Under the pieces are notes generated by a model. The model was given only the letters and a program-made list of their open reading frames with translations, was not told the origin of the DNA and did not search any database. Shown here in pieces: positions 3,106 through 57,077 of a stretch of 64,000 nt of DNA. Every line of letters starts with the position of its first letter. The first letter of the stretch is position 1. This DNA is from Escherichia phage PBECO4: the sequence record KC295538; one strand, written 5' to 3'. A program made the position numbers and the translations under genes.

Positions 3106-3617
3106 AACTTCTCCTTTATAGCTGTCATATTTAGAAGAAATTCAGTAAGCAATTCCTCCGTAACATGCTCTGTATACCAGAATATCACAATATCTTTTGA
3201 AAGTCGTGTATTCATAAAAATATCTACTAACTCTTTGTAGTACTCTAAATCATTAAGATCTTTTAAAATCAATGAGTACTGAAAGAGTAATTCTTCAGTT
3301 AGATTAAATTCTGGGTAGAGTAAATCATTAAATTCATGTGACGCTGTTTGAACTTTAATTTCTTTGAAATCATTTGTTATTCCTCCACATGTTCCATATA
3401 AAGCTGCATAGTCCATGAATCTGGCTTTGGGGTTCAAGTCAAGAACCGTTTCCCCTTTATAGGATAAACGATGGAACGCAGAGAACTTGGTTAATTCCCA
3501 CGGTTGCTTAATGCCTAATTCAAGTATATCAACCCCACTGTACAAAATATCAGTGAATATCTCACCAATCCTCAATAATAATTTAGTACGTGCTAGTACT
3601 GTCATAGGTTCAATCAT
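3099..3617 (-). CDS. FamA paralog
   Basis: 172 aa; EELLFQYSLIL. Confidence 0.7.
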   Translation of the reverse strand: MIEPMTVLARTKLLLRIGEIFTDILYSGVDILELGIKQPWELTKFSAFHRLSYKGETVLDLNPKARFMDYAALYGTCGGITNDFKEIKVQTASHEFNDLLYPEFNLTEELLFQYSLILKDLNDLEYYKELVDIFMNTRLSKDIVIFWYTEHVTEELLTEFLLNMTAIKEKLC

Positions 3618-4030
3618 TATACACCTTCATATTCATCAAGGAAATCTTCGATGATCATTTCAGCTTCATCCATATGCATCGCATCAACTTCAATAATACG
3701 AATTTTAGATGTATCCCAAATCATAAAGCTAGGAACATTGTCTGGCTCGTAATCATTTTTGTACTGAACAGCATCATAACCTTGAGCCGTGCAATTCTCA
3801 ATAAGTGAACGCCACTCATCATCACTGCCTAAATCTTCACACAGAAGCACGTTATCAACATCAACTTCTAAGGTATGCAAGTATACTGTACATGCGTCAA
3901 CAACGTTTAGTGGGCTTCTCAGCTTGCGTAATGCAGCTTCCAAAGCACTGTGTTTGCCTCCCATATGAAGTCCACCATACGGGATATAAAAGTTATCAAT
4001 TTTTACAGTACTCGCATGATACAGTTTCAT
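3617..4030 (-). CDS. hypothetical protein
   Basis: 137 aa ORF; no family motif. Confidence 0.6.
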   Translation of the reverse strand: MKLYHASTVKIDNFYIPYGGLHMGGKHSALEAALRKLRSPLNVVDACTVYLHTLEVDVDNVLLCEDLGSDDEWRSLIENCTAQGYDAVQYKNDYEPDNVPSFMIWDTSKIRIIEVDAMHMDEAEMIIEDFLDEYEGV

Positions 4031-15738: not shown

Positions 15739-16252
15739 CGATGTTCATCGCCAATAAGTTAATATACAAATTACTGTTAAATGCAATCTGCAATTCCATA
15801 TAGAACTGAATGATAGCATAGTCAGGGTCAGTACACGATAGTTGAAAACACTGTTCGTCAAATGCATTGTAATTGTACTTAGGGATGTGAATTTCACGCT
15901 TCAAATCAGGTTGACCCCACTTCATCGCATACACACCAATGTTATTGTTCTTTTTCCTTTTCTTAAATGTTAATTGTTGAATATTTCCAGCGTTGTCTAG
16001 GAAAATAGTATTATTCGACACAGGTGCACCAATAGAAAACAATGATGTATCAATTACGTGTGTCTCACGCACCTCACACTTCTGGAATGCCCCAGTACCC
16101 TGTAATACATAATGAAAATTGTACTTCTCATTAACAACAGTACTAGGATCGATTAAACCAGTACTGCATTTTTTGAGTACTGGTACAATGGTGCGAATCT
16201 TTTTTGATAAATCTTGTAATGCATCAAAGTCATTGATGTTAACTTTCATCAC
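15716..16252 (-). CDS. FamA-like paralog (divergent)
   Basis: 178 aa; DEQCFQLSCTD. Confidence 0.55.
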   Translation of the reverse strand: MMKVNINDFDALQDLSKKIRTIVPVLKKCSTGLIDPSTVVNEKYNFHYVLQGTGAFQKCEVRETHVIDTSLFSIGAPVSNNTIFLDNAGNIQQLTFKKRKKNNNIGVYAMKWGQPDLKREIHIPKYNYNAFDEQCFQLSCTDPDYAIIQFYMELQIAFNSNLYINLLAMNIDEVFKNI

Positions 16253-19143: not shown

Positions 19144-19635
19144 TTAACCCCTGTTAATACCGTTATCTACAGTTTTCTTTACGTATTTGTAATCGAAATA
19201 GAAGTTCCCAGAACCAATACTTTTAAAGTACCACATAATTATAATAACATCAAGCACTTCATTATCGTATACAGTACTTTGTTGGAAGTAATACTCTTCA
19301 CTATCCCACGGACCTTCCAGTACTTCACTCGGAATTATAATGTCATCGGAATCGCTATCAGTACTGTAGATGGTATCTGTATCATTAATATAGACCATGT
19401 ACTCATTATGCATATTAATGAAGCATTCATAATCATTAGGGTCGGTATCCAGTACACACGTTTCTGTATCCAGTACGCACGTTTCTGTATCTGAGTCGTC
19501 ATTATTAAGGAGGTTATCCGGTACATAATATTGAGTACTTGTGTCTTTGAAAACACCGTAAACTGAACCTTCTTTTGCCATATTCATGTACTCATGAATC
19601 TTCTTTGCTTTTTCCAATGAACTCTGTAATGTCAT
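19144..19635 (-). CDS. FamA paralog, MSLQSALEKAK subfamily copy 5
   Basis: 163 aa; WDSEEYYFQQSTVYD. Confidence 0.75.
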   Translation of the reverse strand: MTLQSSLEKAKKIHEYMNMAKEGSVYGVFKDTSTQYYVPDNLLNNDDSDTETCVLDTETCVLDTDPNDYECFINMHNEYMVYINDTDTIYSTDSDSDDIIIPSEVLEGPWDSEEYYFQQSTVYDNEVLDVIIIMWYFKSIGSGNFYFDYKYVKKTVDNGINRG

Positions 19636-19644
19636 TTTATAATC

Positions 19645-19998
19645 TCATATATTGAAATAATAATTATTCGTTCTTGATGGGGATGGATTAAATACGTTTT
19701 CTTTTTCAAATCTCTTCATTTCATTTTGCAAAGAAACCATTTCTTCAAATGTACAGGAGTACTTATTCTTATCAAACACTAATGCAGCCTGAAATAGTTC
19801 ACCATCGTCCAGTACTGTATAATCTATAAGACTCTCAGATTCATAGTCATCATGTGATACATGAATAAATTTAAAACAAGAATCTTTGTAATGCATATAT
19901 AAACTCAACTCATGTTCCGAGTCTCCCTTAATAAGATTACAGCACAAGTCCCATCCTTTAGGTAACTTATAATAGTACATAGAATAATCATATGTCAT
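19645..19998 (-). CDS. FamA paralog, LFQxALVFDKKY subfamily
   Basis: 117 aa; DGELFQAALVFDKNKYSCTFEEM. Confidence 0.7.
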   Translation of the reverse strand: MTYDYSMYYYKLPKGWDLCCNLIKGDSEHELSLYMHYKDSCFKFIHVSHDDYESESLIDYTVLDDGELFQAALVFDKNKYSCTFEEMVSLQNEMKRFEKENVFNPSPSRTNNYYFNI

Positions 19999-20354
19999 TC
20001 TTGAATTCCTAAATTGAATTTGTATTCTTGATTAATACTTGCATTGGGTTTATTCAAAGCAGCATACTCTTTCATTTCATTTTGTATTGCAATAACTTCT
20101 TCAAATGTACACAAGTACTTCTTATCAAATACTAATGATTCTTGGAATAGTTCTGCGGTATCCATTAATGTATAGTCAGGCATATCTTGGTGTGGATACT
20201 GTAATGAACTGTAATCAATGAATGTAAATTTACCCTGAGTGTAATGAATATACTCATTTGCACTGTGCATTAAATCACCTTTGTTTAAATTACAAAAGTA
20301 CTGATAACTGTGCTTAAAAGAATGTACTGATATTAAAAAATCAAATTCCATCAC
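19995..20354 (-). CDS. FamA paralog, LFQxALVFDKKY subfamily
   Basis: 119 aa; TAELFQESLVFDKKYLCTFEEV. Confidence 0.7.
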   Translation of the reverse strand: MMEFDFLISVHSFKHSYQYFCNLNKGDLMHSANEYIHYTQGKFTFIDYSSLQYPHQDMPDYTLMDTAELFQESLVFDKKYLCTFEEVIAIQNEMKEYAALNKPNASINQEYKFNLGIQE

Positions 20355-22071: not shown

Positions 22072-22416
22072 TTACATATTTGTACCGAACAAAACGGAAC
22101 TTTGAATGCCATTAATCGACACTTCATGTACATATATATTTTGTCTGAACAAAGGAACTAATTGAACTAAACTCGTTTGCATAATAATATGCATATGTAC
22201 ATTGTCATATGCCGTTTCGTATTGGAATCGTGCAGCTTCATCTTCTATGAAATTCGGAACTTGGACTGGATTCTCAAAATTTGTCCTTGTACTGAACTGT
22301 ACATCATTGTCCTGTACCTTAATACCATATGAATTATCATTGTTATCAACTACATCAAATTCAATTAAACTACCATCTTTACTGACGTTTACTATATAAA
22401 CCGAAAATCGACTCAT
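22072..22416 (-). CDS. FamA-like paralog (divergent)
   Basis: 114 aa; EAARFQYETAYD. Confidence 0.5.
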   Translation of the reverse strand: MSRFSVYIVNVSKDGSLIEFDVVDNNDNSYGIKVQDNDVQFSTRTNFENPVQVPNFIEDEAARFQYETAYDNVHMHIIMQTSLVQLVPLFRQNIYVHEVSINGIQSSVLFGTNM

Positions 22417-28232: not shown

Positions 28233-28533
28233 TGATCCTCCCTGACATACCTTGTATTAGCTTATCATACATATCGAGCATCACTTTTTGAATACTAATT
28301 AGTACTGGCATCGTGCAAATATCAATGTCGTATACTAAGCTGTACTGGAATAATTCATCTTCCTGCATTTGTACTAAATTAGGTAAAAGATAATTGTCTG
28401 CCTCTTCATCCTGGTACTTGAAATGCATAACACCATCCTTTTTGTACAAAAGAATGTCAATATCACCCAACTCTTCGGCATAACCAAATATACATATATT
28501 AGATGTTTTTGCTATATTAAATTTCATCTCCAC
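28216..28533 (-). CDS. FamA paralog (short)
   Basis: 105 aa; EDELFQYSLVYD. Confidence 0.7.
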   Translation of the reverse strand: MEMKFNIAKTSNICIFGYAEELGDIDILLYKKDGVMHFKYQDEEADNYLLPNLVQMQEDELFQYSLVYDIDICTMPVLISIQKVMLDMYDKLIQGMSGRIIEIDI

Positions 28534-37720: not shown

Positions 37721-37870
37721 TTTGAATCTCCTAACTTTGTGGGCCGTCGCACCATTGCCGCCCTACGAGATACATTATTGCAGTACTGATATACTTTGTC
37801 AATACTTTTTTATTAATAGTTTTAGTTCCACCAGCAGATAGTTACTCACCGTTATTAACTATATATTTTG

Positions 37871-37953
37871 GATACACTTATGCACCCTGTGGGCTGATTT
37901 GTTTCTATGCGTATATAATAGCAAAGGGACTGACCGGAGTCAATCCCTTTTTT
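37871..37953 (+). repeat. terminator-bearing repeat, copy 1 (candidate small RNA cassette)
   Basis: gatacact..gcaccctgtgggc..tatataatagcaaa + gggactgaccggagtcaatccc hairpin + T6. Confidence 0.5.
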
Positions 37954-40078: not shown

Positions 40079-40120
40079 GTACTTTTTTAAAATAGTTTTC
40101 AGTACTGAATACTTATATAA

Positions 40121-40210
40121 TAGATACACTTCCGCACCCTATGGGTCAGTGAGTTATCTCTCAATGAATATATAATAGCAAAGGGACTGACCGGAGTCAA
40201 TCCCTTTTTT
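40121..40210 (+). repeat. terminator-bearing repeat, copy 2 (candidate small RNA cassette)
   Basis: TATAAT-agatacacttccgcaccctatgggtc...aaagggactgaccggagtcaatccc + T6. Confidence 0.5.
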
Positions 40211-43258: not shown

Positions 43259-43343
43259 TTACTCCTGGTTATGTCGTTATTAAACATTATACGGGGTTAT
43301 AGATAGTTTTCAAGTATATTTCAGTACTAGCCACCAGCATATA

Positions 43344-43430
43344 ATAGATACATTTATGCACCCTATGGGCTGATTTTTTTCTATGCGTATATAATAGCAA
43401 AGGGACTGACCGGAGTCAATCCCTTTTTTA
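43344..43430 (+). repeat. terminator-bearing repeat, copy 3 (candidate small RNA cassette)
   Basis: TATAAT-agatacatttatgcaccctatgggctg...gggactgaccggagtcaatccc + T6. Confidence 0.5.
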
Positions 43431-45038: not shown

Positions 45039-45242
45039 TATTTTAACCTCATTATAAAAATACTATAGTACTGTAATGCGACAATAATATTACTTGTTCT
45101 TACTTTTTCCAATCCACATGATACCACATATTCATCCCCATATGTGCGGAACGATACACCATGAAAATTTTTATACACTTGCACTACTAATCATAACCTT
45201 TCGTCTAACCAACTGCATAGAATTATACTACTTTACGCAAAT

Positions 45243-45275
45243 TGATCAAGTATTGATCAGATCATTTTTTGATCA
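45243..45275. promoter_or_regulatory. cluster of three TGATCA palindromes (GATC sites) in long leader
   Basis: ttgatcaagtattgatcagatcattttttgatcaa; overlaps TTGATC-N17-TATAAT on minus strand. Confidence 0.45.
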
Positions 45276-45369
45276 ATATTATACAGTTACATTTGTGCAC
45301 CCTATGGGTTAGTGACGTTCTCGTCTTGATGTAAGTATTATGCCAGTACTTGATGATATTGTCAATAGT

Positions 45370-46906: not shown

Positions 46907-46960
46907 GTACTTTTTATCAAATACTTTAAAATAGTTTTCAGTACTCAAACATTATACAAT

Positions 46961-47050
46961 AGATACACTCCTGCACCCTGTGGGCTAGTGAGCTATCTCT
47001 CAATGATTATATAATAACAAAATGGCTGACCGAAGTCAACCACTTTTTTC
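46961..47050 (+). repeat. terminator-bearing repeat, copy 4 (variant)
   Basis: TACAAT-agatacactcctgcaccctgtgggct...tggctgaccgaagtcaacca + T6. Confidence 0.45.
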
Positions 47051-51397: not shown

Positions 51398-51426
51398 TTG
51401 ACAACTGCATCCAGTACTGGCATAAT
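51398..51426 (+). promoter_or_regulatory. plus-strand sigma70-like promoter (antisense to flanking genes)
   Basis: TTGACA-N17-CATAAT, reading into ..ctaacccaccgggtgc.. element. Confidence 0.5.
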
Positions 51427-51506
51427 TACTACATCAAGACGAAACAGTCACTAACCCACCGGGTGCCGAGATCCGTCTATTAAATGATTCAGTACTTAAC
51501 AATAAA

Positions 51507-51524
51507 GGGGATCAATCGATCCCC
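51507..51524 (-). terminator. intrinsic terminator
   Basis: ggggatcaatcgatcccc perfect palindrome + T-run on minus strand. Confidence 0.55.
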
Positions 51525-51530
51525 TATGTA

Positions 51531-51752
51531 TTACTTAGTAAGGTATAAACAGAAGTCACCTTTATTTGCTACGCCGCCAGTGTAACGCGATGAATAGTTA
51601 GAAACGTCCTGGACTTCTGCTATTACCAGTGTATCATCATTCAATTCGTCGCAGAAGCAAACGGCTGGATCTTTTACGCCGATCTTGTCGGCATGTTCCC
51701 GCATAGATTTAACCAGTGCTTCCAGTTGAGAAAGAGTAGTGATATTAGCCAT
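51531..51752 (-). CDS. hypothetical protein
   Basis: Start moved to ATG at 51752 (MANITTL...). Confidence 0.55.
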   Translation of the reverse strand: MANITTLSQLEALVKSMREHADKIGVKDPAVCFCDELNDDTLVIAEVQDVSNYSSRYTGGVANKGDFCLYLTK

Positions 51753-51771
51753 TGTATTTTCCTCATTACCA

Positions 51772-51830
51772 GGGAGAACCATTTCTCCCCTCTATGTAAA
51801 CTATTATACAGTACTGAAAACTAATTGCAA
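51772..51830 (-). promoter_or_regulatory. PeSL-like promoter + leader hairpin
   Basis: TTGCAA-N16-TATAAT then ggggagaaatggttctccc. Confidence 0.65.
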
Positions 51831-51836
51831 GTACTT

Positions 51837-52025
51837 TTAATTAAATTCCATAAAATCATTCTCAACGTGCACAACAATTTGATTGTTTTTAAAGTCCGCA
51901 GCGAACTCGATGCAATCATAAACCGCTTTTTGTGTTACAATGCTATGAGTACCAATCGGATTAATAGGGGATTGAATTGTTTCAATCTCGTTCCCTTGCT
52001 CATTAACAATTAAAATATTAAACAT
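51837..52025 (-). CDS. hypothetical protein
   Basis: 62 aa ORF. Confidence 0.5.
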   Translation of the reverse strand: MFNILIVNEQGNEIETIQSPINPIGTHSIVTQKAVYDCIEFAADFKNNQIVVHVENDFMEFN

Positions 52026-52081
52026 CGCTGTTACTCCTGGGTAGTGTTAACTCGATATAAAGTATTATACGCCTTTATTGC

Positions 52082-52288
52082 TTAGTGTCCAGTACTTTTT
52101 AAAACATATTCATAAACACTACGCACATCATTGATCATCGCCTGGCGGTTAGCAGGTAACGCACCAGGATCGCCACTATCCCAGGCATTGATAAAACTCC
52201 CCAAATCATGAAAGATTTTATTCTGTAAGCCGATTAACTGCAATTCTTTTTCTTCAAGCTCTTTGATACGGTCAATTAAAAGACTCAT
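52082..52288 (-). CDS. hypothetical protein
   Basis: Start moved to ATG at 52288 (MSLLIDRIKE...); GAGGAttatctaATG context shared with next gene. Confidence 0.55.
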   Translation of the reverse strand: MSLLIDRIKELEEKELQLIGLQNKIFHDLGSFINAWDSGDPGALPANRQAMINDVRSVYEYVLKSTGH

Positions 52289-52305
52289 TAGATAATCCTC
52301 AGTAC

Positions 52306-52593
52306 TTAATTGTAAGATCCGCAACGGTTACAATAGTGCCCGTCTTCCTCGTCATCGTCAACGAATTGACCGACGAAATTATCTACTTTCTCTTTGAGAT
52401 TCTGATAATTGTTTTCAACTTCCTTTAGACGTTCCTGGTAGTATTCCAGGGCTTGCACATACGCCGCCTCAGCCGTTTTCGCTCTTAAGGCTAAATTCAT
52501 GCCACGCGTTTCATCGTACATCCAAAAGCCATCGGTGCACTCACTGATTGACAATGATTTGGTTAACACTTTATAGTCAATTACTTTGCTCAT
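52306..52593 (-). CDS. hypothetical protein
   Basis: Start moved to ATG at 52593 (MSKVIDYKV...) after ggcgggtgtggttcccgcc hairpin. Confidence 0.55.
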   Translation of the reverse strand: MSKVIDYKVLTKSLSISECTDGFWMYDETRGMNLALRAKTAEAAYVQALEYYQERLKEVENNYQNLKEKVDNFVGQFVDDDEEDGHYCNRCGSYN

Positions 52594-52649
52594 TAGATAA
52601 TCCTCAGTAAAGGCGGGAACCACACCCGCCATTGATTCAGTACTGAATG

Positions 52650-52889
52650 TTACATTCCAACCATTGCAGCACGGATCGCCGTAGTGCTATACTTGAATCC
52701 GTCCGGTGTTGTAGTAGTACCGTTGGCTTTTAATCTGCGGTACATACATTGGGCCGCAATATCTTTAGTTTTACATTGTGCGATGCAACTTTGAGCAAGC
52801 CGATATAATGACTCACCGTTATTAATCCACAATGAAACATTCCAATGAGTTTTGTTTTTGTGCCCGTTGTAAGTTTTAGTAGTAGCCAT
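52650..52889 (-). CDS. hypothetical protein (paralog of 54698..54937)
   Basis: 79 aa; shared GHKNKTHWNVSLWINN and TPDGFKYSTTAIRAAMVGM. Confidence 0.65.
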   Translation of the reverse strand: MATTKTYNGHKNKTHWNVSLWINNGESLYRLAQSCIAQCKTKDIAAQCMYRRLKANGTTTTPDGFKYSTTAIRAAMVGM

Positions 52890-52911
52890 TTTTAAATCCT
52901 CGTTTAATTGA

Positions 52912-52973
52912 GCGGGAGAACCATTCCCCCGCCTCGATATAAAGTATTATACGCTTTTAAACTTAGTTTGCAA
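52912..52973 (-). promoter_or_regulatory. PeSL-like promoter + leader hairpin
   Basis: TTGCAA..TATAAT then gcgggggaatggttctcccgc. Confidence 0.65.
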
Positions 52974-52985
52974 GTACTTTTTAAA

Positions 52986-53597
52986 TTAATATGCGATTGA
53001 TTCTACTACGTCATCAATAACATTGAATTGATACTCGTTACCCTCGATCAGTGCCGTGATGTTCTCAGTAGTGAATTGATCCTCATATGCATTCTCTAAA
53101 TCACGGTACAACTTGCGGGACAATTCACGAATAGTATCAGTGAGTAGTTCCTCAAGCTCATTAACTAACGTTTCTTGTTTTGCGGTTAAATCAGTGTAAG
53201 CCGATTCAATGTACCCGCTTACAGTATTCTCATGCGAGTAGTGGGAGTGCGAACGCTTTACACTCATCGCCAAATCATCTTCATTCAGCAAGTGACGGAT
53301 TGAGCGATACTTAGTTAATGCTCTTACCTTGCGTAAAAACTTCACTGCGTCAACGTGGTCAGTACTGATTGATGCACCGTCACCCTGGGACCAAAAACCA
53401 CTGAATTGTATTTCAGCTTCATTAATGCCATATTCCGGTAGTACTGTTTCTTTATAGTATTCAATTTCACTTTCAGAAAAATAATTGTCGTTTGAGTTTT
53501 TTTCACGTTCCCGAACCAGTTCGATAGCTGACGTTTGTTGTTCTGCGTTCAATTCAGAAAAATCCATAACGAAAGTAGTAGTAGTGATAGTTTTCAT
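52986..53597 (-). CDS. hypothetical protein
   Basis: 203 aa ORF; largest gene of cassette region. Confidence 0.6.
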   Translation of the reverse strand: MKTITTTTFVMDFSELNAEQQTSAIELVREREKNSNDNYFSESEIEYYKETVLPEYGINEAEIQFSGFWSQGDGASISTDHVDAVKFLRKVRALTKYRSIRHLLNEDDLAMSVKRSHSHYSHENTVSGYIESAYTDLTAKQETLVNELEELLTDTIRELSRKLYRDLENAYEDQFTTENITALIEGNEYQFNVIDDVVESIAY

Positions 53598-53652
53598 TTT
53601 GTAACCCTCATTCAGTAGTTGATGTAAGTATTATACGCTTTTAAAAACATTT

Positions 53653-53760
53653 GTCAAACTATTTTATCAGGGGAGTTTTTCGTGTGCCTTACTCCTGGGC
53701 TACTTAACGGGAAGTTACTTATTTCGTTCCCCGTCCTGATGTAAAACATTATACGCCTTT
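53653..53760 (-). promoter_or_regulatory. long conserved 5'-leader element (copy 3) with tandem promoters
   Basis: near-identical to 42962-43060; second TTGACA..TATAAT promoter closer to the ATG. Confidence 0.5.
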
Positions 53761-53818
53761 AAACATAGTTTGCAAGTACTTTTTAAAAATAGTTTTCAGT
53801 ACTGAATATTAAAAAAGT

Positions 53819-53847
53819 ATTGACAGCATTATCAAGTACTGGCATAA
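53819..53847 (+). promoter_or_regulatory. plus-strand sigma70-like promoter
   Basis: TTGACA-N17-CATAAT; convergent with a minus-strand TTGACT..CATAAT promoter ~100 bp away. Confidence 0.5.
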
Positions 53848-54022
53848 TATACCACATGACAACAGCTAACCCACCGGGTGCACAATTGTAACTATACTAA
53901 ACTAATTTTTCTATAGATACACTCCCGCACCCTATGGGCTACGGCTTATCTGCCAATGAATACATTATGCCAGTACTGACAAAATAAGTCAATACCGGCA
54001 ATTGTAAAGATTTGTAAACTAC

Positions 54023-56069: not shown

Positions 56070-56097
56070 TTGACTTGATCCTGAAAAAGCGTATAAT
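56070..56097 (+). promoter_or_regulatory. plus-strand sigma70-like promoter
   Basis: TTGACT-N16-TATAAT in ORF-free region. Confidence 0.5.
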
Positions 56098-56284
56098 TAC
56101 TACATAGACGCGAGAAAGCGGAAACCCCAGAGGGTGCGGAATTACGCCCAAAATTCAAGATATAAAAAAAGGATACACTCCCGCACCCTAGCAGGTAAAC
56201 GCACTTTCTCAGTACTGAATTATAGTACCATAGTCCGGCCCAGGATGGCAAGCAAATTAATTAAAACTTTTTTCATCCAGGGTA

Positions 56285-56312
56285 TTGCTTTATTTTTCCA
56301 GTACTGTATAAT
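56285..56312 (+). promoter_or_regulatory. plus-strand sigma70-like promoter
   Basis: TTGCTT-N16-TATAAT. Confidence 0.45.
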
Positions 56313-56409
56313 AGTTCCATCAAGTCGAGAAAGACTCAAGCCCACCGGGTGCATAGTTACGCCCAAAATTCAGTACTGAAAAAATTTTTAAAAATATCCG
56401 TCCAGGCCG

Positions 56410-56655: not shown

Positions 56656-57048
56656 CAGACTTCTGGAGGGCTAGACATATCTACGTCCAAAATCCACCCA
56701 GGGTAACTACGCCCAAAATCCGTCAGTACTATACCATAGATCTATCTTTTGAAAGGGAGTATTCAGTACTGCCACAATAGCCCTCACTATGTTACCCTAG
56801 GAGGATGAAGACTATCATGTAGTACTGAATACTGTTAGAGGGAATCCACCAGCTTGTGCTGGTGGCATAATGCTTTAGATTAAAATCAGTACTGACACCA
56901 TTCTGTTAATATCAGTACTGTTATTACGATTTTCATATGAGGTTCAAAAAGATGTACCACCACAGGAGGAACTATCTTTTCTGTACTGTCTCACGACAGG
57001 AGGTAGAGTAAATGAATTGTTCGCAGCAACTCATCACCCTATGTAGAA

Positions 57049-57077
57049 CATTATACAGTACTGAATCATAATGTCAA
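57049..57077 (-). promoter_or_regulatory. minus-strand sigma70-like promoter reading into ORF-free region
   Basis: TTGACA-N17-TATAAT on minus strand; no ORF downstream for >1 kb. Confidence 0.5.

Follow-up and report, generated by a model that had tools for sequence, protein, structure and literature searches.

The long ORFs at 48-57 kb in Escherichia phage PBECO4 (sequence record KC295538, of which a stretch of 64,000 nucleotides, here called the window, was analyzed) are on the minus strand, and so are the homologues annotated in phage G17. The first-pass annotation reported two good plus-strand promoters in this region, at 51398 and 53819, with a minus-strand promoter facing the second at about 100 bp and imperfect inverted repeats in between; the arrangement was interpreted as a sense/antisense RNA pair or a transcription-collision control point. 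All of these features were found (Table 1). The second plus-strand promoter starts one base later than reported, and the predicted starts of the two facing transcripts, around 53855 (plus) and A53957 (minus), are about 100 bp apart. No ORF of at least 40 aa was detected downstream of either facing promoter within the 53.8-54.0-kb pair. Sigma-70-like sites are only mildly enriched over the whole region (42 observed against 31.9 +/- 5.1 expected).

The inverted repeat, CCCACCGGGTGC on the plus strand and CCCATAGGGTGC on the minus strand, is not a structure specific to this site. It consists of two opposed copies of a dispersed repeat family, whose invariant core is the cccaccgggtgc segment. The 14-mer AGTACTGGCATAAT has six exact occurrences and 26 at up to two mismatches (0.84 expected at that threshold), and AACCCACCGGGTGC occurs 10 times with up to three mismatches (1.06 expected). 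The regular expression CCCAnnGGGTGC gave 80 copies in the window and seven loci. The covariance model R1 was run on 320 kb, made up of the window plus 15 related loci of RaK2-like phages whose hosts belong to five further genera, and found 117 copies (108 distinct). Ten full copies are in the window, confined to 37.9-56.4 kb. This interval matches the terminal repeat of relatives in which the repeat is resolved; judged from this match, all ten copies lie within the direct terminal repeat, about 21 kb long, of a jumbo coliphage of Asteriusvirus type.

Table 1. Promoters, element copies and neighboring features in the window. Fractions of 12 are promoter matches; bits and E values are from the covariance model.
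Feature	Coordinates	Strand	Details
Family copy	37867-37908	-	terminator-hairpin/promoter composite 37915-37947
Family copy	40119-40165	-	60 bits; 33-nt terminator-hairpin/promoter composite 40172-40204
Family copy	43343-43384	-	33-nt composite 43391-43423
Family copy	45282-45328	-	promoter TTGACA-N17-CATAAT 45365-45337
Family copy	46958-47004	-	53.9 bits; terminator-hairpin/promoter composite 47011-47043
Promoter of single copy	51398-51426	+	TTGACA-N17-(TGg)CATAAT, AGTACTG in spacer; 11/12
Element RNA, single copy	51433-51481	+	predicted start A51433; model match 51435-51481, 31.5 bits, E 2.6e-5
Parts of 51433-51481 RNA			P1 51438-51440 with 51447-51449; core CCCACCGGGTGC 51455-51466; P2 51454-51464; P3 51461-51478
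G+C-rich terminator hairpin of minus-strand gene 51531-51782	51506-51525		terminator scan of minus strand
Promoter, plus member of convergent pair	53820-53848	+	TTGACA-N17-(TGg)CATAAT; 11/12
Element RNA, plus member of pair	53855-53896	+	model match 53861-53896, 28 bits, E 2e-4
Parts of 53855-53896 RNA			core CCCACCGGGTGC 53870-53881; P3 53876-53893; A-rich leader, no P1 hairpin found
A+T-rich spacer between the two model matches of the pair	53897-53911		15 nt; 21 nt from P3 end to P3 end
Element RNA, minus member of pair	53912-53957	-	model match, 45.8 bits, E 6.4e-9
Parts of 53912-53957 RNA		-	P1 TGGC-AGATAA-GCCG 53955-53942; core CCCATAGGGTGC 53938-53927; P3 53932-53915
Promoter, minus member of pair	53992-53964	-	TTGACT-N17-(TGg)CATAAT; 10/12; feature spans 53964-53998
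Family copy, plus member of degenerate pair	56106-56152	+	promoter TTGACT-N16-TATAAT 56070-56097
Degenerate minus partner	56170-56189	-	retains P3 hairpin AGGGTGCGGGAGTGTATCCT alone, then T7: canonical intrinsic terminator
Family copy	56321-56367	+	46.9 bits; promoter TTGCTT-N16-TATAAT 56285-56312

An exact-pattern scan of IMG/VR detected 15 loci, 13 on jumbo contigs of 345-378 kb, one on a 109-kb and one on a 5.8-kb contig. The same type of scan over 185,579 bacterial and archaeal genomes gave 12 scattered, chance-level matches, none of them enterobacterial; host-RNA mimicry and a host or prophage origin were rejected on this ground. Against the Klebsiella phages K64-1 and RaK2, the sole alignable part is 81-82 nt (53911-53992), comprising the element and its promoter, with 84-85% identity. 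The 12-nt box is invariant over six host genera, and its flanks have diverged. Judged from these alignments, the element RNA is better preserved than the surrounding genes when phages from different host genera are compared. No Rfam 15 family reached its gathering threshold in the 64-kb window; at E <= 10, four sub-threshold matches (11.6-19.4 bits, thresholds 37-78) appeared in 53780-54020. ARAGORN detected no tRNA or tmRNA in the window. Short resemblances of single variants to E. coli RNase P RNA, tmRNA and the 16S 530 region are presumably due to chance. The phage records inspected carry no RNA annotation at element sites, and no description of the element was found in the literature on the motif or on transcription and small RNAs of RaK2-type phages.

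The copies are built alike: first a near-consensus sigma-70 promoter, then an A start 7 nt past the -10, the P1 hairpin, and finally CCCAYAGGGUGC. A promoter of at least 9/12 is present in 105 of 115 distinct copies, and for 72 of these 105 the end of the -10 lies 6 nt ahead of model position 1. All ten window copies have it at the fixed distance (9-11/12). Of 81 copies analyzed for orientation, 30 are on the plus and 51 on the minus strand; 51 are co-directional with the genes and 30 (37%) opposed. Convergent pairs account for 26 of the 81. The remaining two thirds or so are unpaired and equally well conserved, with promoter, P1 and core intact.

The structured part is about 47 nt long, and P1 starts 2-3 nt from the predicted 5' end. 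P1 has 3-5 bp and a purine-rich loop, mostly of 6-8 nt, with the classes AGAUAA, AGAACAA, GCGAAA, GAGAAA and GGACACAA; it is missing in about 10-15% of copies. Two-sided changes were observed at all four of its alignment pairs (for example, GC 47, CG 28, AU 4, GU 4, UA 3 and other 1), and 90.6% of the cells are paired. Covariation of the whole structure was 0.442, compared with 0.230 +/- 0.007 for shuffled alignments (none of 500 as high) and 0.054-0.097 when the partners were slid.

The invariant segment (R)CCCAYAGGGUGC can form either P2 (RCCC/GGGU) or P3 (GGGUGCR/UGYRYYY), which are mutually exclusive. P3 is 88% paired. Its five outer pairs vary almost solely from G·U to G-C or from U-A to U·G, the exceptions being three A-U and one C-G in about 540 cells. 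Wobble pairs make up about 44% of the cells, and on the opposite strand they correspond to A·C mismatches. Because the variation takes this form, the P3 helix can form only in RNA of the promoter strand. P2 is 98% paired, and its closing base is a purine in 109 of 117 copies. The rare C2-to-U change goes with G·U or G6-to-A, so that the pair is never broken; the support for P2 comes mainly from invariant bases. Both core hairpins have low stability (means -3.6 and -2.6 kcal/mol), and they are iso-energetic, with a median difference of -0.2 kcal/mol; one is favored in 55 copies, the other in 53. When folded singly, the 42-49-nt elements were no better than shuffles (z -0.2 to -1.1), and some copies favor a long-range stem in such folds.

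Several other roles for the RNA were considered and rejected. A pseudoknot between the P1 loop (AGAUA) and the P3 3' strand (UAUCU), or a long-range closing stem, appears in some single folds and has no covariation in the family, since loops of the AGAUAA class are combined with a wide range of 3' strands. A mini-ORF starting from P3 (GGAG followed by AUG or GUG) would have a spacing of 0-1 nt; NUG occupies the start position in just about 60% of copies, with no conservation of the stops. A CsrA-type sponge was rejected because the P3 loop contains GGA in just some 60-65% of copies. P3 is not a general intrinsic terminator either. Its tail is of the consensus type AUAAUAUA with no U-tract, and the degenerate 56170-56189 hairpin alone qualifies.

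The sequences show that the family combines a place in the terminal repeat (the early, host-takeover region), strong host-type sigma-70 promoters and RNA-type structural constraints on the promoter strand only. We give a probability of roughly 0.5 to the following explanation: the three promoters belong to three of ten window copies of a conserved small-RNA gene family, transcribed early by the host and acting through the invariant core. Host RNA polymerase would make abundant element RNAs once the terminal repeat enters the cell. P1 would shield the RNA 5' end, and the invariant two-state core would be the recognition site of a trans-acting partner, most likely a protein. The element RNA would then work as a product itself (decoy, sponge or regulator) and not by regulating its neighbor gene. 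The starts, 3' ends and abundance of the element RNAs are predictions.

The 51398 unit has no partner promoter facing it. Its promoter drives one copy, which continues into the neighboring gene's terminator hairpin. A separate hairpin/tail scan reads this hairpin, followed by ATGTATTAC, on the plus strand as well, and it is the first one reached by the element RNA. Gene-opposed single copies such as this one would be expected to stop at a terminator shared with the neighbor gene. A G+C hairpin with a T-rich tail lies 20-25 nt past the model end (5 nt once) in 8 of 17 unpaired gene-opposed copies, compared with 2 of 38 co-directional ones. Small antisense RNAs of phages, lambda OOP and P22 sar among them, also come from a promoter of their own, and an OOP-like RNA has its own terminator besides. 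The strong promoter of the 51398 unit is convergent to a protein gene, and its RNA of about 100 nt is predicted to stop at the terminator hairpin of that gene, overlapping the mRNA 3' end. However, OOP and sar are single-copy RNAs with extended complementarity to one target, whereas the element family is multi-copy and in both orientations. The overlap of the 51398 RNA with the convergent mRNA is the terminator region only, and the conserved core is not complementary to the neighbor gene.

The co-directional copies have no terminator of their own and run on into the promoter and coding sequence of the next gene; a second promoter, AGTACTTGCAA-N16-TATAAT, is situated ahead of the ORF. Thus, these copies are possibly leaders, not separate RNAs. 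In the strongest of the alternatives, which we nevertheless regard as unlikely, every copy is a cis-acting leader (nut-, put- or ops-like, or an attenuator) that modifies RNA polymerase for read-through of the early-region terminators. The RNA, or the 12-nt box as non-template DNA, would load a host or phage factor, or P2 (anti-terminator) and P3 (terminator-like) would act as a switch; gene-opposed copies would silence early genes via antisense read-through. The element is indeed placed at a fixed position directly after the promoter, two overlapping hairpins are the form of an attenuator, and P3 with T7 in the degenerate 56170-56189 copy is a true terminator. The co-directional copies begin inside the terminator hairpin of the preceding gene, with no terminator before the next gene. 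The box has the same length as ops, the 12-nt element that RfaH recognizes in non-template DNA. However, with 30 of the 81 copies gene-opposed and 26 facing another copy, there is nothing at these sites to antiterminate, and the usual tail of P3 has no U-tract.

Like the lambdoid nut sites (boxA + boxB) and HK022 put, the element is a short structured RNA directly downstream of strong early promoters. As in nut, a purine-rich-loop hairpin stands beside a conserved linear box in an early region with many terminators, and the P1 loops ending in AA (AGAUAA, GCGAAA, AGAACAA) together with the invariant box recall boxB and boxA. BoxB is a hairpin whose pentaloop is GNRA-like, and it is specific for one N protein. 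The P1 loops vary and P1 is sometimes absent, which may make P1 a poor fit for such a specific protein site. We know of no N-like factor for this family, and the loading factor is hypothetical. The lambda boxA consensus is CGCUCUUUA-like. CCCAYAGGGUGC has no similarity to this consensus, and no boxA-like sequence is present in the family alignment. HK022 put RNA has two stems in about 65-70 nt and acts on RNA polymerase without a protein factor, whereas the element has 47 nt and another layout. Part order and size differ from nut and put, and the copy number is about ten per repeat as opposed to two. Those sites are co-oriented with the operon whose terminators they override, whereas many element copies are antisense or facing.

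Face-to-face pairs were found in every related phage examined (13 pairs from 8 sources), so the arrangement described in the first-pass annotation recurs. As the family's general function, a local sense/antisense control point did not hold, because about two thirds of the copies are unpaired and 51 of 81 are co-directional. Collision or antisense control at the paired sites is possible. At such sites, the small-RNA units facing each other would curb each other's transcripts, through collision or a long read-through hairpin, and the two RNAs would be mutually complementary if either polymerase reads through. A slightly less probable explanation than the leader, which generalizes the first-pass interpretation, is that the pair itself is the functional unit, with head-on transcription or complementary RNAs serving as an insulator, terminator or RNase III processing site for early transcription and with single copies as half-sites or decayed pairs. 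The spacing of the pairs is quantized: the gap between model ends is exactly 15 nt in 9 of the 13, the core-to-core distance is 68 nt, and the starts are 93-128 bp apart. The degenerate pair 56126+/56189- keeps this geometry, its remnant being located where the 68-nt distance predicts. The read-through RNAs at 53.8-54.0 kb fold into very stable long hairpins, with -42.7 kcal/mol (z -6.3) for the minus and -28.8 kcal/mol (z -5.2) for the plus strand. A Fur-box-like GATAATGATAATCATT in the spacer of Munch, Hallingskeid and K64-1 would suit a regulated roadblock, but the window's own pair has no Fur box. Furthermore, the unpaired copies are conserved equally well, and the P1 covariation and P3 wobble pattern suggest that selection acts on the individual RNAs rather than the duplex.

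Two known arrangements resemble the pairs. In coliphage 186, the strong promoters pR and pL form a switch that acts by transcriptional interference; as in the window's pair, where the starts are about 100 bp apart, they face each other and each transcript crosses the other promoter. However, each of them serves the gene set of an alternative developmental program, whereas no ORF follows here, both promoters drive the same RNA motif, and the arrangement is repeated several times per genome. REP/BIME elements are likewise short G+C-rich motifs between genes, in both orientations and often in inverted pairs with a fixed short spacer, which can hold a host-protein site (IHF in RIP-type BIMEs; Fur-box-like here, in some relatives only). 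REPs are chromosomal and have neither a promoter of their own nor a covarying 5' hairpin, whereas every element copy is a phage transcription unit.

PeSLs (promoter-early stem-loops) of T4-type phages are composite terminator/promoter motifs found in the plastic parts of these genomes (Arbiol et al. 2010, PMC2839356; Comeau et al. 2014, PMC4122927). The element shares with them the dispersed intergenic repeats in a plastic early region with small ORFs, the near-consensus sigma-70 promoter and, in co-directional copies, a stem-loop fused to the promoter. This fusion is present at 37915-37947, 40172-40204, 43391-43423, 47011-47043 and 53970-53998, one 33-nt version being identical in the first three. 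In the last, read from the sequence, the -35 of the minus member sits within an 11-bp hairpin (53998-53970). The plus-strand promoters at 51398, 53820, 56070 and 56285 have no such fusion. A PeSL leads from stem-loop and promoter straight into an ORF, whereas a covarying 47-nt RNA with an invariant 12-mer follows here, 37% of the copies are gene-opposed and a third are in convergent pairs. That the copies are PeSL-like DNA cassettes, terminator/promoter modules that provide recombination homology to shuffle small early genes with the transcribed motif as a passenger, would account for the stem-loops embedding the -35, the identical 33-nt version and the many small ORFs that differ between relatives, but is improbable because homology shuffling leaves the P1 compensatory changes, the transition-only P3 variation and the invariant box unexplained, a second promoter intervenes before the ORF, and the plus-strand copies have no PeSL-type stem-loop upstream.

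The small-RNA gene family, which we prefer, can be extended to a new class of host-takeover RNAs, although this bolder form is tentative and we doubt it as a whole. Host polymerase would make a 47-nt two-state RNA from about twenty copies in the genome, ten in each terminal repeat, during the first minutes of infection, and the CCCAYAGGGUGC switch would capture or reprogram a host factor. RNA polymerase, a termination factor, an RNA chaperone, an RNase or a defense sensor are candidates. The pairs would give short, precisely ended RNAs by collision.

The genomes of RaK2-like jumbo phages (Asteriusvirus, Alcyoneusvirus, Mimasvirus and relatives) measure 345-380 kb, with an early region annotated almost entirely as "hypothetical". 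Within the terminal repeat, many of the best promoters of host type, ten of them at 9-11/12, serve a structured RNA and not proteins, whereas a few consensus-grade ones do serve protein genes. The element family is new to the annotations inspected, to Rfam and to the literature found, and it is a candidate addition to RNA-family databases. Small ORF calls over element sites (for example, 121Q gene 270) are probably spurious because of this RNA family. If the RNAs act in trans early in infection, they would open a new way to study the takeover of Enterobacteria by jumbo phages and offer a ready target for antisense or deletion experiments.

The three promoters reported by the first-pass annotation were recovered by inspection of the sequence and a promoter scan: TTGACA-N17-CATAAT at 51398-51426 and 53820-53848 on the plus strand, and the facing TTGACT-N17-CATAAT at 53992-53964 on the minus strand, each with a TG upstream of the -10. 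The inverted motifs described between the facing promoters are also present, cccaccgggtgc at 53870-53881 (+) and its near-complement at 53927-53938, which reads CCCATAGGGTGC on the minus strand. What did not hold is the proposal of a local, one-off sense/antisense control point: the sites are three members (one single, one pair) of a dispersed family with ten copies in the window. The original finding is real, yet it was undersold in one respect and over-localised in another.

Within the window, AACCCACCGGGTGC occurs 10 times with up to three mismatches (1.06 expected), and every occurrence has its own promoter 25-30 nt upstream on the same strand. The same architecture was found in G17, 121Q, Klebsiella phage K64-1, Pectobacterium phage CBB, Cronobacter phage GAP32, Salmonella phage Munch and Erwinia phage Hallingskeid, and a simple regular expression returned 80 copies across the phages compared. 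In a core-anchored alignment, conservation spans about -20 to +26 relative to the core, the invariant CCCAYAGGGUGC, and no further. The family covariance model R1, built from 16 ungapped copies, matched 117 copies (108 distinct) in the 320 kb searched. Exactly ten R1 copies lie in the window, all in the terminal-repeat interval and none in the remaining ~42 kb. In comparisons with the Klebsiella phages, nothing but the element and its promoter (81-82 nt, 53911-53992) still aligns, at 84-85% identity; the genes on either side do not. An exact 23-nt pattern was found at 15 loci in IMG/VR: 13 on contigs of 345-378 kb and the other two on contigs of 109 kb and 5.8 kb. In one genome per bacterial and archaeal species, the same pattern gave 12 scattered matches, none in Enterobacteria, against a rough chance estimate of a few tens.

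Coordinates of element copies, Chi sites and Fur-box-bearing spacers of convergent pairs
Feature	Sequence	Position	Strand	Basis
Element copy	window	37867-37908	-	covariance model
Element copy	window	40119-40165	-	covariance model
Element copy	window	43343-43384	-	covariance model
Element copy	window	45282-45328	-	covariance model
Element copy	window	46958-47004	-	covariance model
Element copy, single (51398 unit)	window	51435-51481	+	covariance model
Element copy, pair member	window	53861-53896	+	covariance model
Element copy, pair member	window	53912-53957	-	covariance model
Element copy	window	56106-56152	+	covariance model
Element copy	window	56321-56367	+	covariance model
Degenerate remnant, P3 only	window	56170-56189	-	terminator scan / sequence
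Chi sites GCTGGTGG	window	37828, 39628, 41032, 43331, 44599, 45644, 49800, 56846	-	sequence count
Chi sites GCTGGTGG	window	49862, 56858	+	sequence count
Fur-box-bearing pair spacers	Munch (L005)	~15915-15940, 22308-22340		
Fur-box-bearing pair spacer	Hallingskeid (L006)	~19375-19400		
Fur-box-bearing pair spacer	K64-1 (L002)	~28305-28330		

By sequence comparison, 51.3-54.1 kb shares 92-99% identity with jumbo coliphages of Asteriusvirus, e.g. SP27, G17, phAPEC6 and 121Q, and in phage vB_Ec-M-J the homologous stretch occupies 3468-3678 within a feature of 21,525 bp that bears the annotation "Direct Terminal Repeats". On relatives with the repeat resolved, window 56.7-58.3 kb corresponds to the point where unique sequence meets the right-hand repeat, and 35-37.2 kb to the inner end of the left-hand one. 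Thus, the terminal repeat occupies approximately 36-57.5 kb of the window. This interval is dense with small minus-strand ORFs, every one "hypothetical" in the records. It also holds all ten Chi sites of the window (0.36 expected), 8 of the 10 in the same orientation; they could protect the linear genome ends against RecBCD.

Several other signals were observed. Perfect (12/12) sigma-70 promoters, TTGACA-N16-TATAAT, lie on the minus strand at 53630-53657, driving a 203-aa ORF (52986-53597), and at 57050-57077, a few hundred bases or less from the predicted physical genome end. AGTACTTGCA has 19 exact minus-strand occurrences between 37376 and 55798 (e.g. 51826-51835, 52969-52978 and 53771-53780), none outside the terminal repeat, and forms the -35 region of the small protein gene promoters, AGTACTTGCAA-N16-TATAAT. 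These are a second promoter class, separate from the TTGACA promoters of the element. Such use of AGTACTTGCA recalls the middle promoters of T4, in which a MotA box replaces the -35. The small early genes have in common a 5' UTR hairpin, GAGGGG(G)A-NNNGGUU-CUCCC, beginning a few nt past the predicted start (51770-51792 and 52912-52933 on the minus strand, and similar sites 5' of other small genes), which is kept in K64-1, Munch and Hallingskeid. The palindrome CAGTACTG occurs 54 times in the whole window (0.7 expected; e.g. 51412-51419, 53797-53804, 53971-53978 and 56887-56920). It lies within the spacers of many promoters (AGTACTGGCATAAT) and 8-20 nt 3' of most copies of the element, and two palindromes can form a hairpin together (56887-56920); possibly it is an operator for an early regulator. 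Just downstream of the minus-strand copy at 45282-45328, four GATC sites with repeated GATCA fall within 28 bp (45244, 45255, 45260 and 45271, in 45242-45277). Similar clusters accompany the orthologous copy in 121Q and one Hallingskeid copy, and the cluster could be Dam/SeqA-type or origin-like.

A promoter matching at least 9 of 12 positions was detected at 105 of 115 distinct copies. Since the -10 ends exactly 6 nt before R1 position 1 in 72 of these 105, the predicted start falls on the A within a conserved CAU. The 5' hairpin, P1, begins 2-3 nt from this predicted end and has at least 15 different stem sequences, with both-sided changes at all 4 base pairs; one pair is GC in 47 copies, CG in 28, AU in 4, GU in 4, UA in 3 and unpaired in 1. 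The covariation score was 0.442, compared with 0.230 +/- 0.007 in shuffles (0 of 500 reached 0.442), and fell to 0.054-0.097 when partners were slid by 1-3 columns. The core can enter either of two further hairpins. In P3, the 5' strand is the invariant GGGUGC(R), and the 3' strand changes almost only in ways that preserve pairing (Y at 19, R at 20, Y at 21-23; GU 70/GC 31, GC 96/GU 10, GU 85/GC 10, UA 71/UG 36 and GU 77/GC 30), while the unpaired positions beside it undergo free transversions. Wobble pairs make up nearly half of P3 cells. Since the opposite strand would have A·C mismatches in their place, the P3 helix exists only in RNA from the adjacent promoter. In the alternative, P2, the core pairs as RCCC-(3-4 nt)-GGGU, with 98% of cells paired, a purine before CCC in 109 of 117 copies and a loop variable in length and sequence. 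Where C2 is changed to U, which is rare, the P2 pair is always kept, since the change comes with G (3 copies) or with G6 to A. P2 and P3 use the same GGGU and cannot coexist. Each is weak (means -3.6 and -2.6 kcal/mol), and over the family they are iso-energetic (median difference -0.2 kcal/mol, 55 vs 53 copies). As judged from the promoters and these substitution patterns, the element is a transcribed-strand RNA unit, beyond a DNA-level motif.

Convergent pairs account for 26 of the 81 copies in the eight main sources (13 pairs). Nine of the 13, among them the 53820/53992 pair, have exactly 15 nt between the ends of the two model hits and 68 nt from core to core, a spacing shared by Asteriusvirus and Mimasvirus. 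The degenerate pair 56126+/56189- has the same geometry, and its minus partner is a textbook hairpin-plus-U7 terminator. Read-through RNA spanning the 53855-53957 pair folds into a long hairpin on the minus strand (-42.7 kcal/mol, z -6.3) and on the plus strand (-28.8 kcal/mol, z -5.2). Since the pair spacing is quantised, a collision, insulator or RNase III model may apply to the paired subset. Several pairs in other phages carry a near-consensus Fur box in the spacer (GATAATGATAATCATTT, AAATGATTATCATT); none was found in the window's pairs. In 121Q, gene 270 ("hypothetical protein", 19994-20179) is annotated over a convergent pair, and short ORFs appear there in several other records; these are probably false gene calls.

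Among the same 81 copies, 51 are co-directional with genes and 30 opposed. Of the unpaired opposed copies, 8 of 17 meet an own-strand G+C hairpin with a T-rich tail 20-25 nt past the model end (5 nt once); for the 51398 unit this hairpin is at 51506-51525, predicting an RNA of ~100 nt. Because orientation is free with respect to the neighbours and antisense singles have terminators, we prefer the hypothesis that the element is a trans-acting small RNA. The -35 of co-directional copies is usually embedded in the preceding gene's terminator, a G+C-rich hairpin whose loop is UCCG or UUCG. One such composite, the 33-nt gggattgactccggtcagtccctttgctattat, is present in three identical copies (37915-37947, 40172-40204 and 43391-43423), which looks like PeSL-type duplication or gene conversion inside the repeat. 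No terminator was found between co-directional copies and the next gene's own promoter, and this keeps alive a cis-acting leader (antitermination or attenuation), which we consider unlikely. For the trans-acting small RNA, host polymerase would give early, abundant transcription, and the invariant core would be a putative binding site for a trans-acting partner. P1 may stabilise the 5' end by analogy with E. coli mRNAs, which 5' stem-loops are established to stabilise. The 3' ends would come from shared terminators, collision or processing.

The element matched no Rfam family, and no tRNA or tmRNA was found. The inspected records annotate no RNA feature at element sites, and some place short "hypothetical protein" ORFs there. 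The CBB genome paper mentions RpoD-like promoters alone (PMC5259590), and a literature search, including for the motif itself, found no account of the element. Among published concepts, the nearest is the PeSL of T4-type phages, a composite terminator/promoter cassette (PMC2839356, PMC4122927) that has its stem-loop-plus-promoter part in common with the co-directional copies. PeSLs have no conserved transcribed RNA and lead straight into ORFs. The nut and put antitermination RNAs, OOP-type antisense RNAs and 186-type convergent promoters each have one aspect in common with the element but differ in at least one defining feature. Based on these results, we conclude that a conserved promoter and structured RNA unit is present in multiple copies, that its RNA is constrained on one strand only and has two alternative hairpins in the core, and that convergent pairs recur at fixed spacing. 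The units form a family of structured RNAs, not described before, that is specific to the terminal repeats in RaK2-like jumbo phages.
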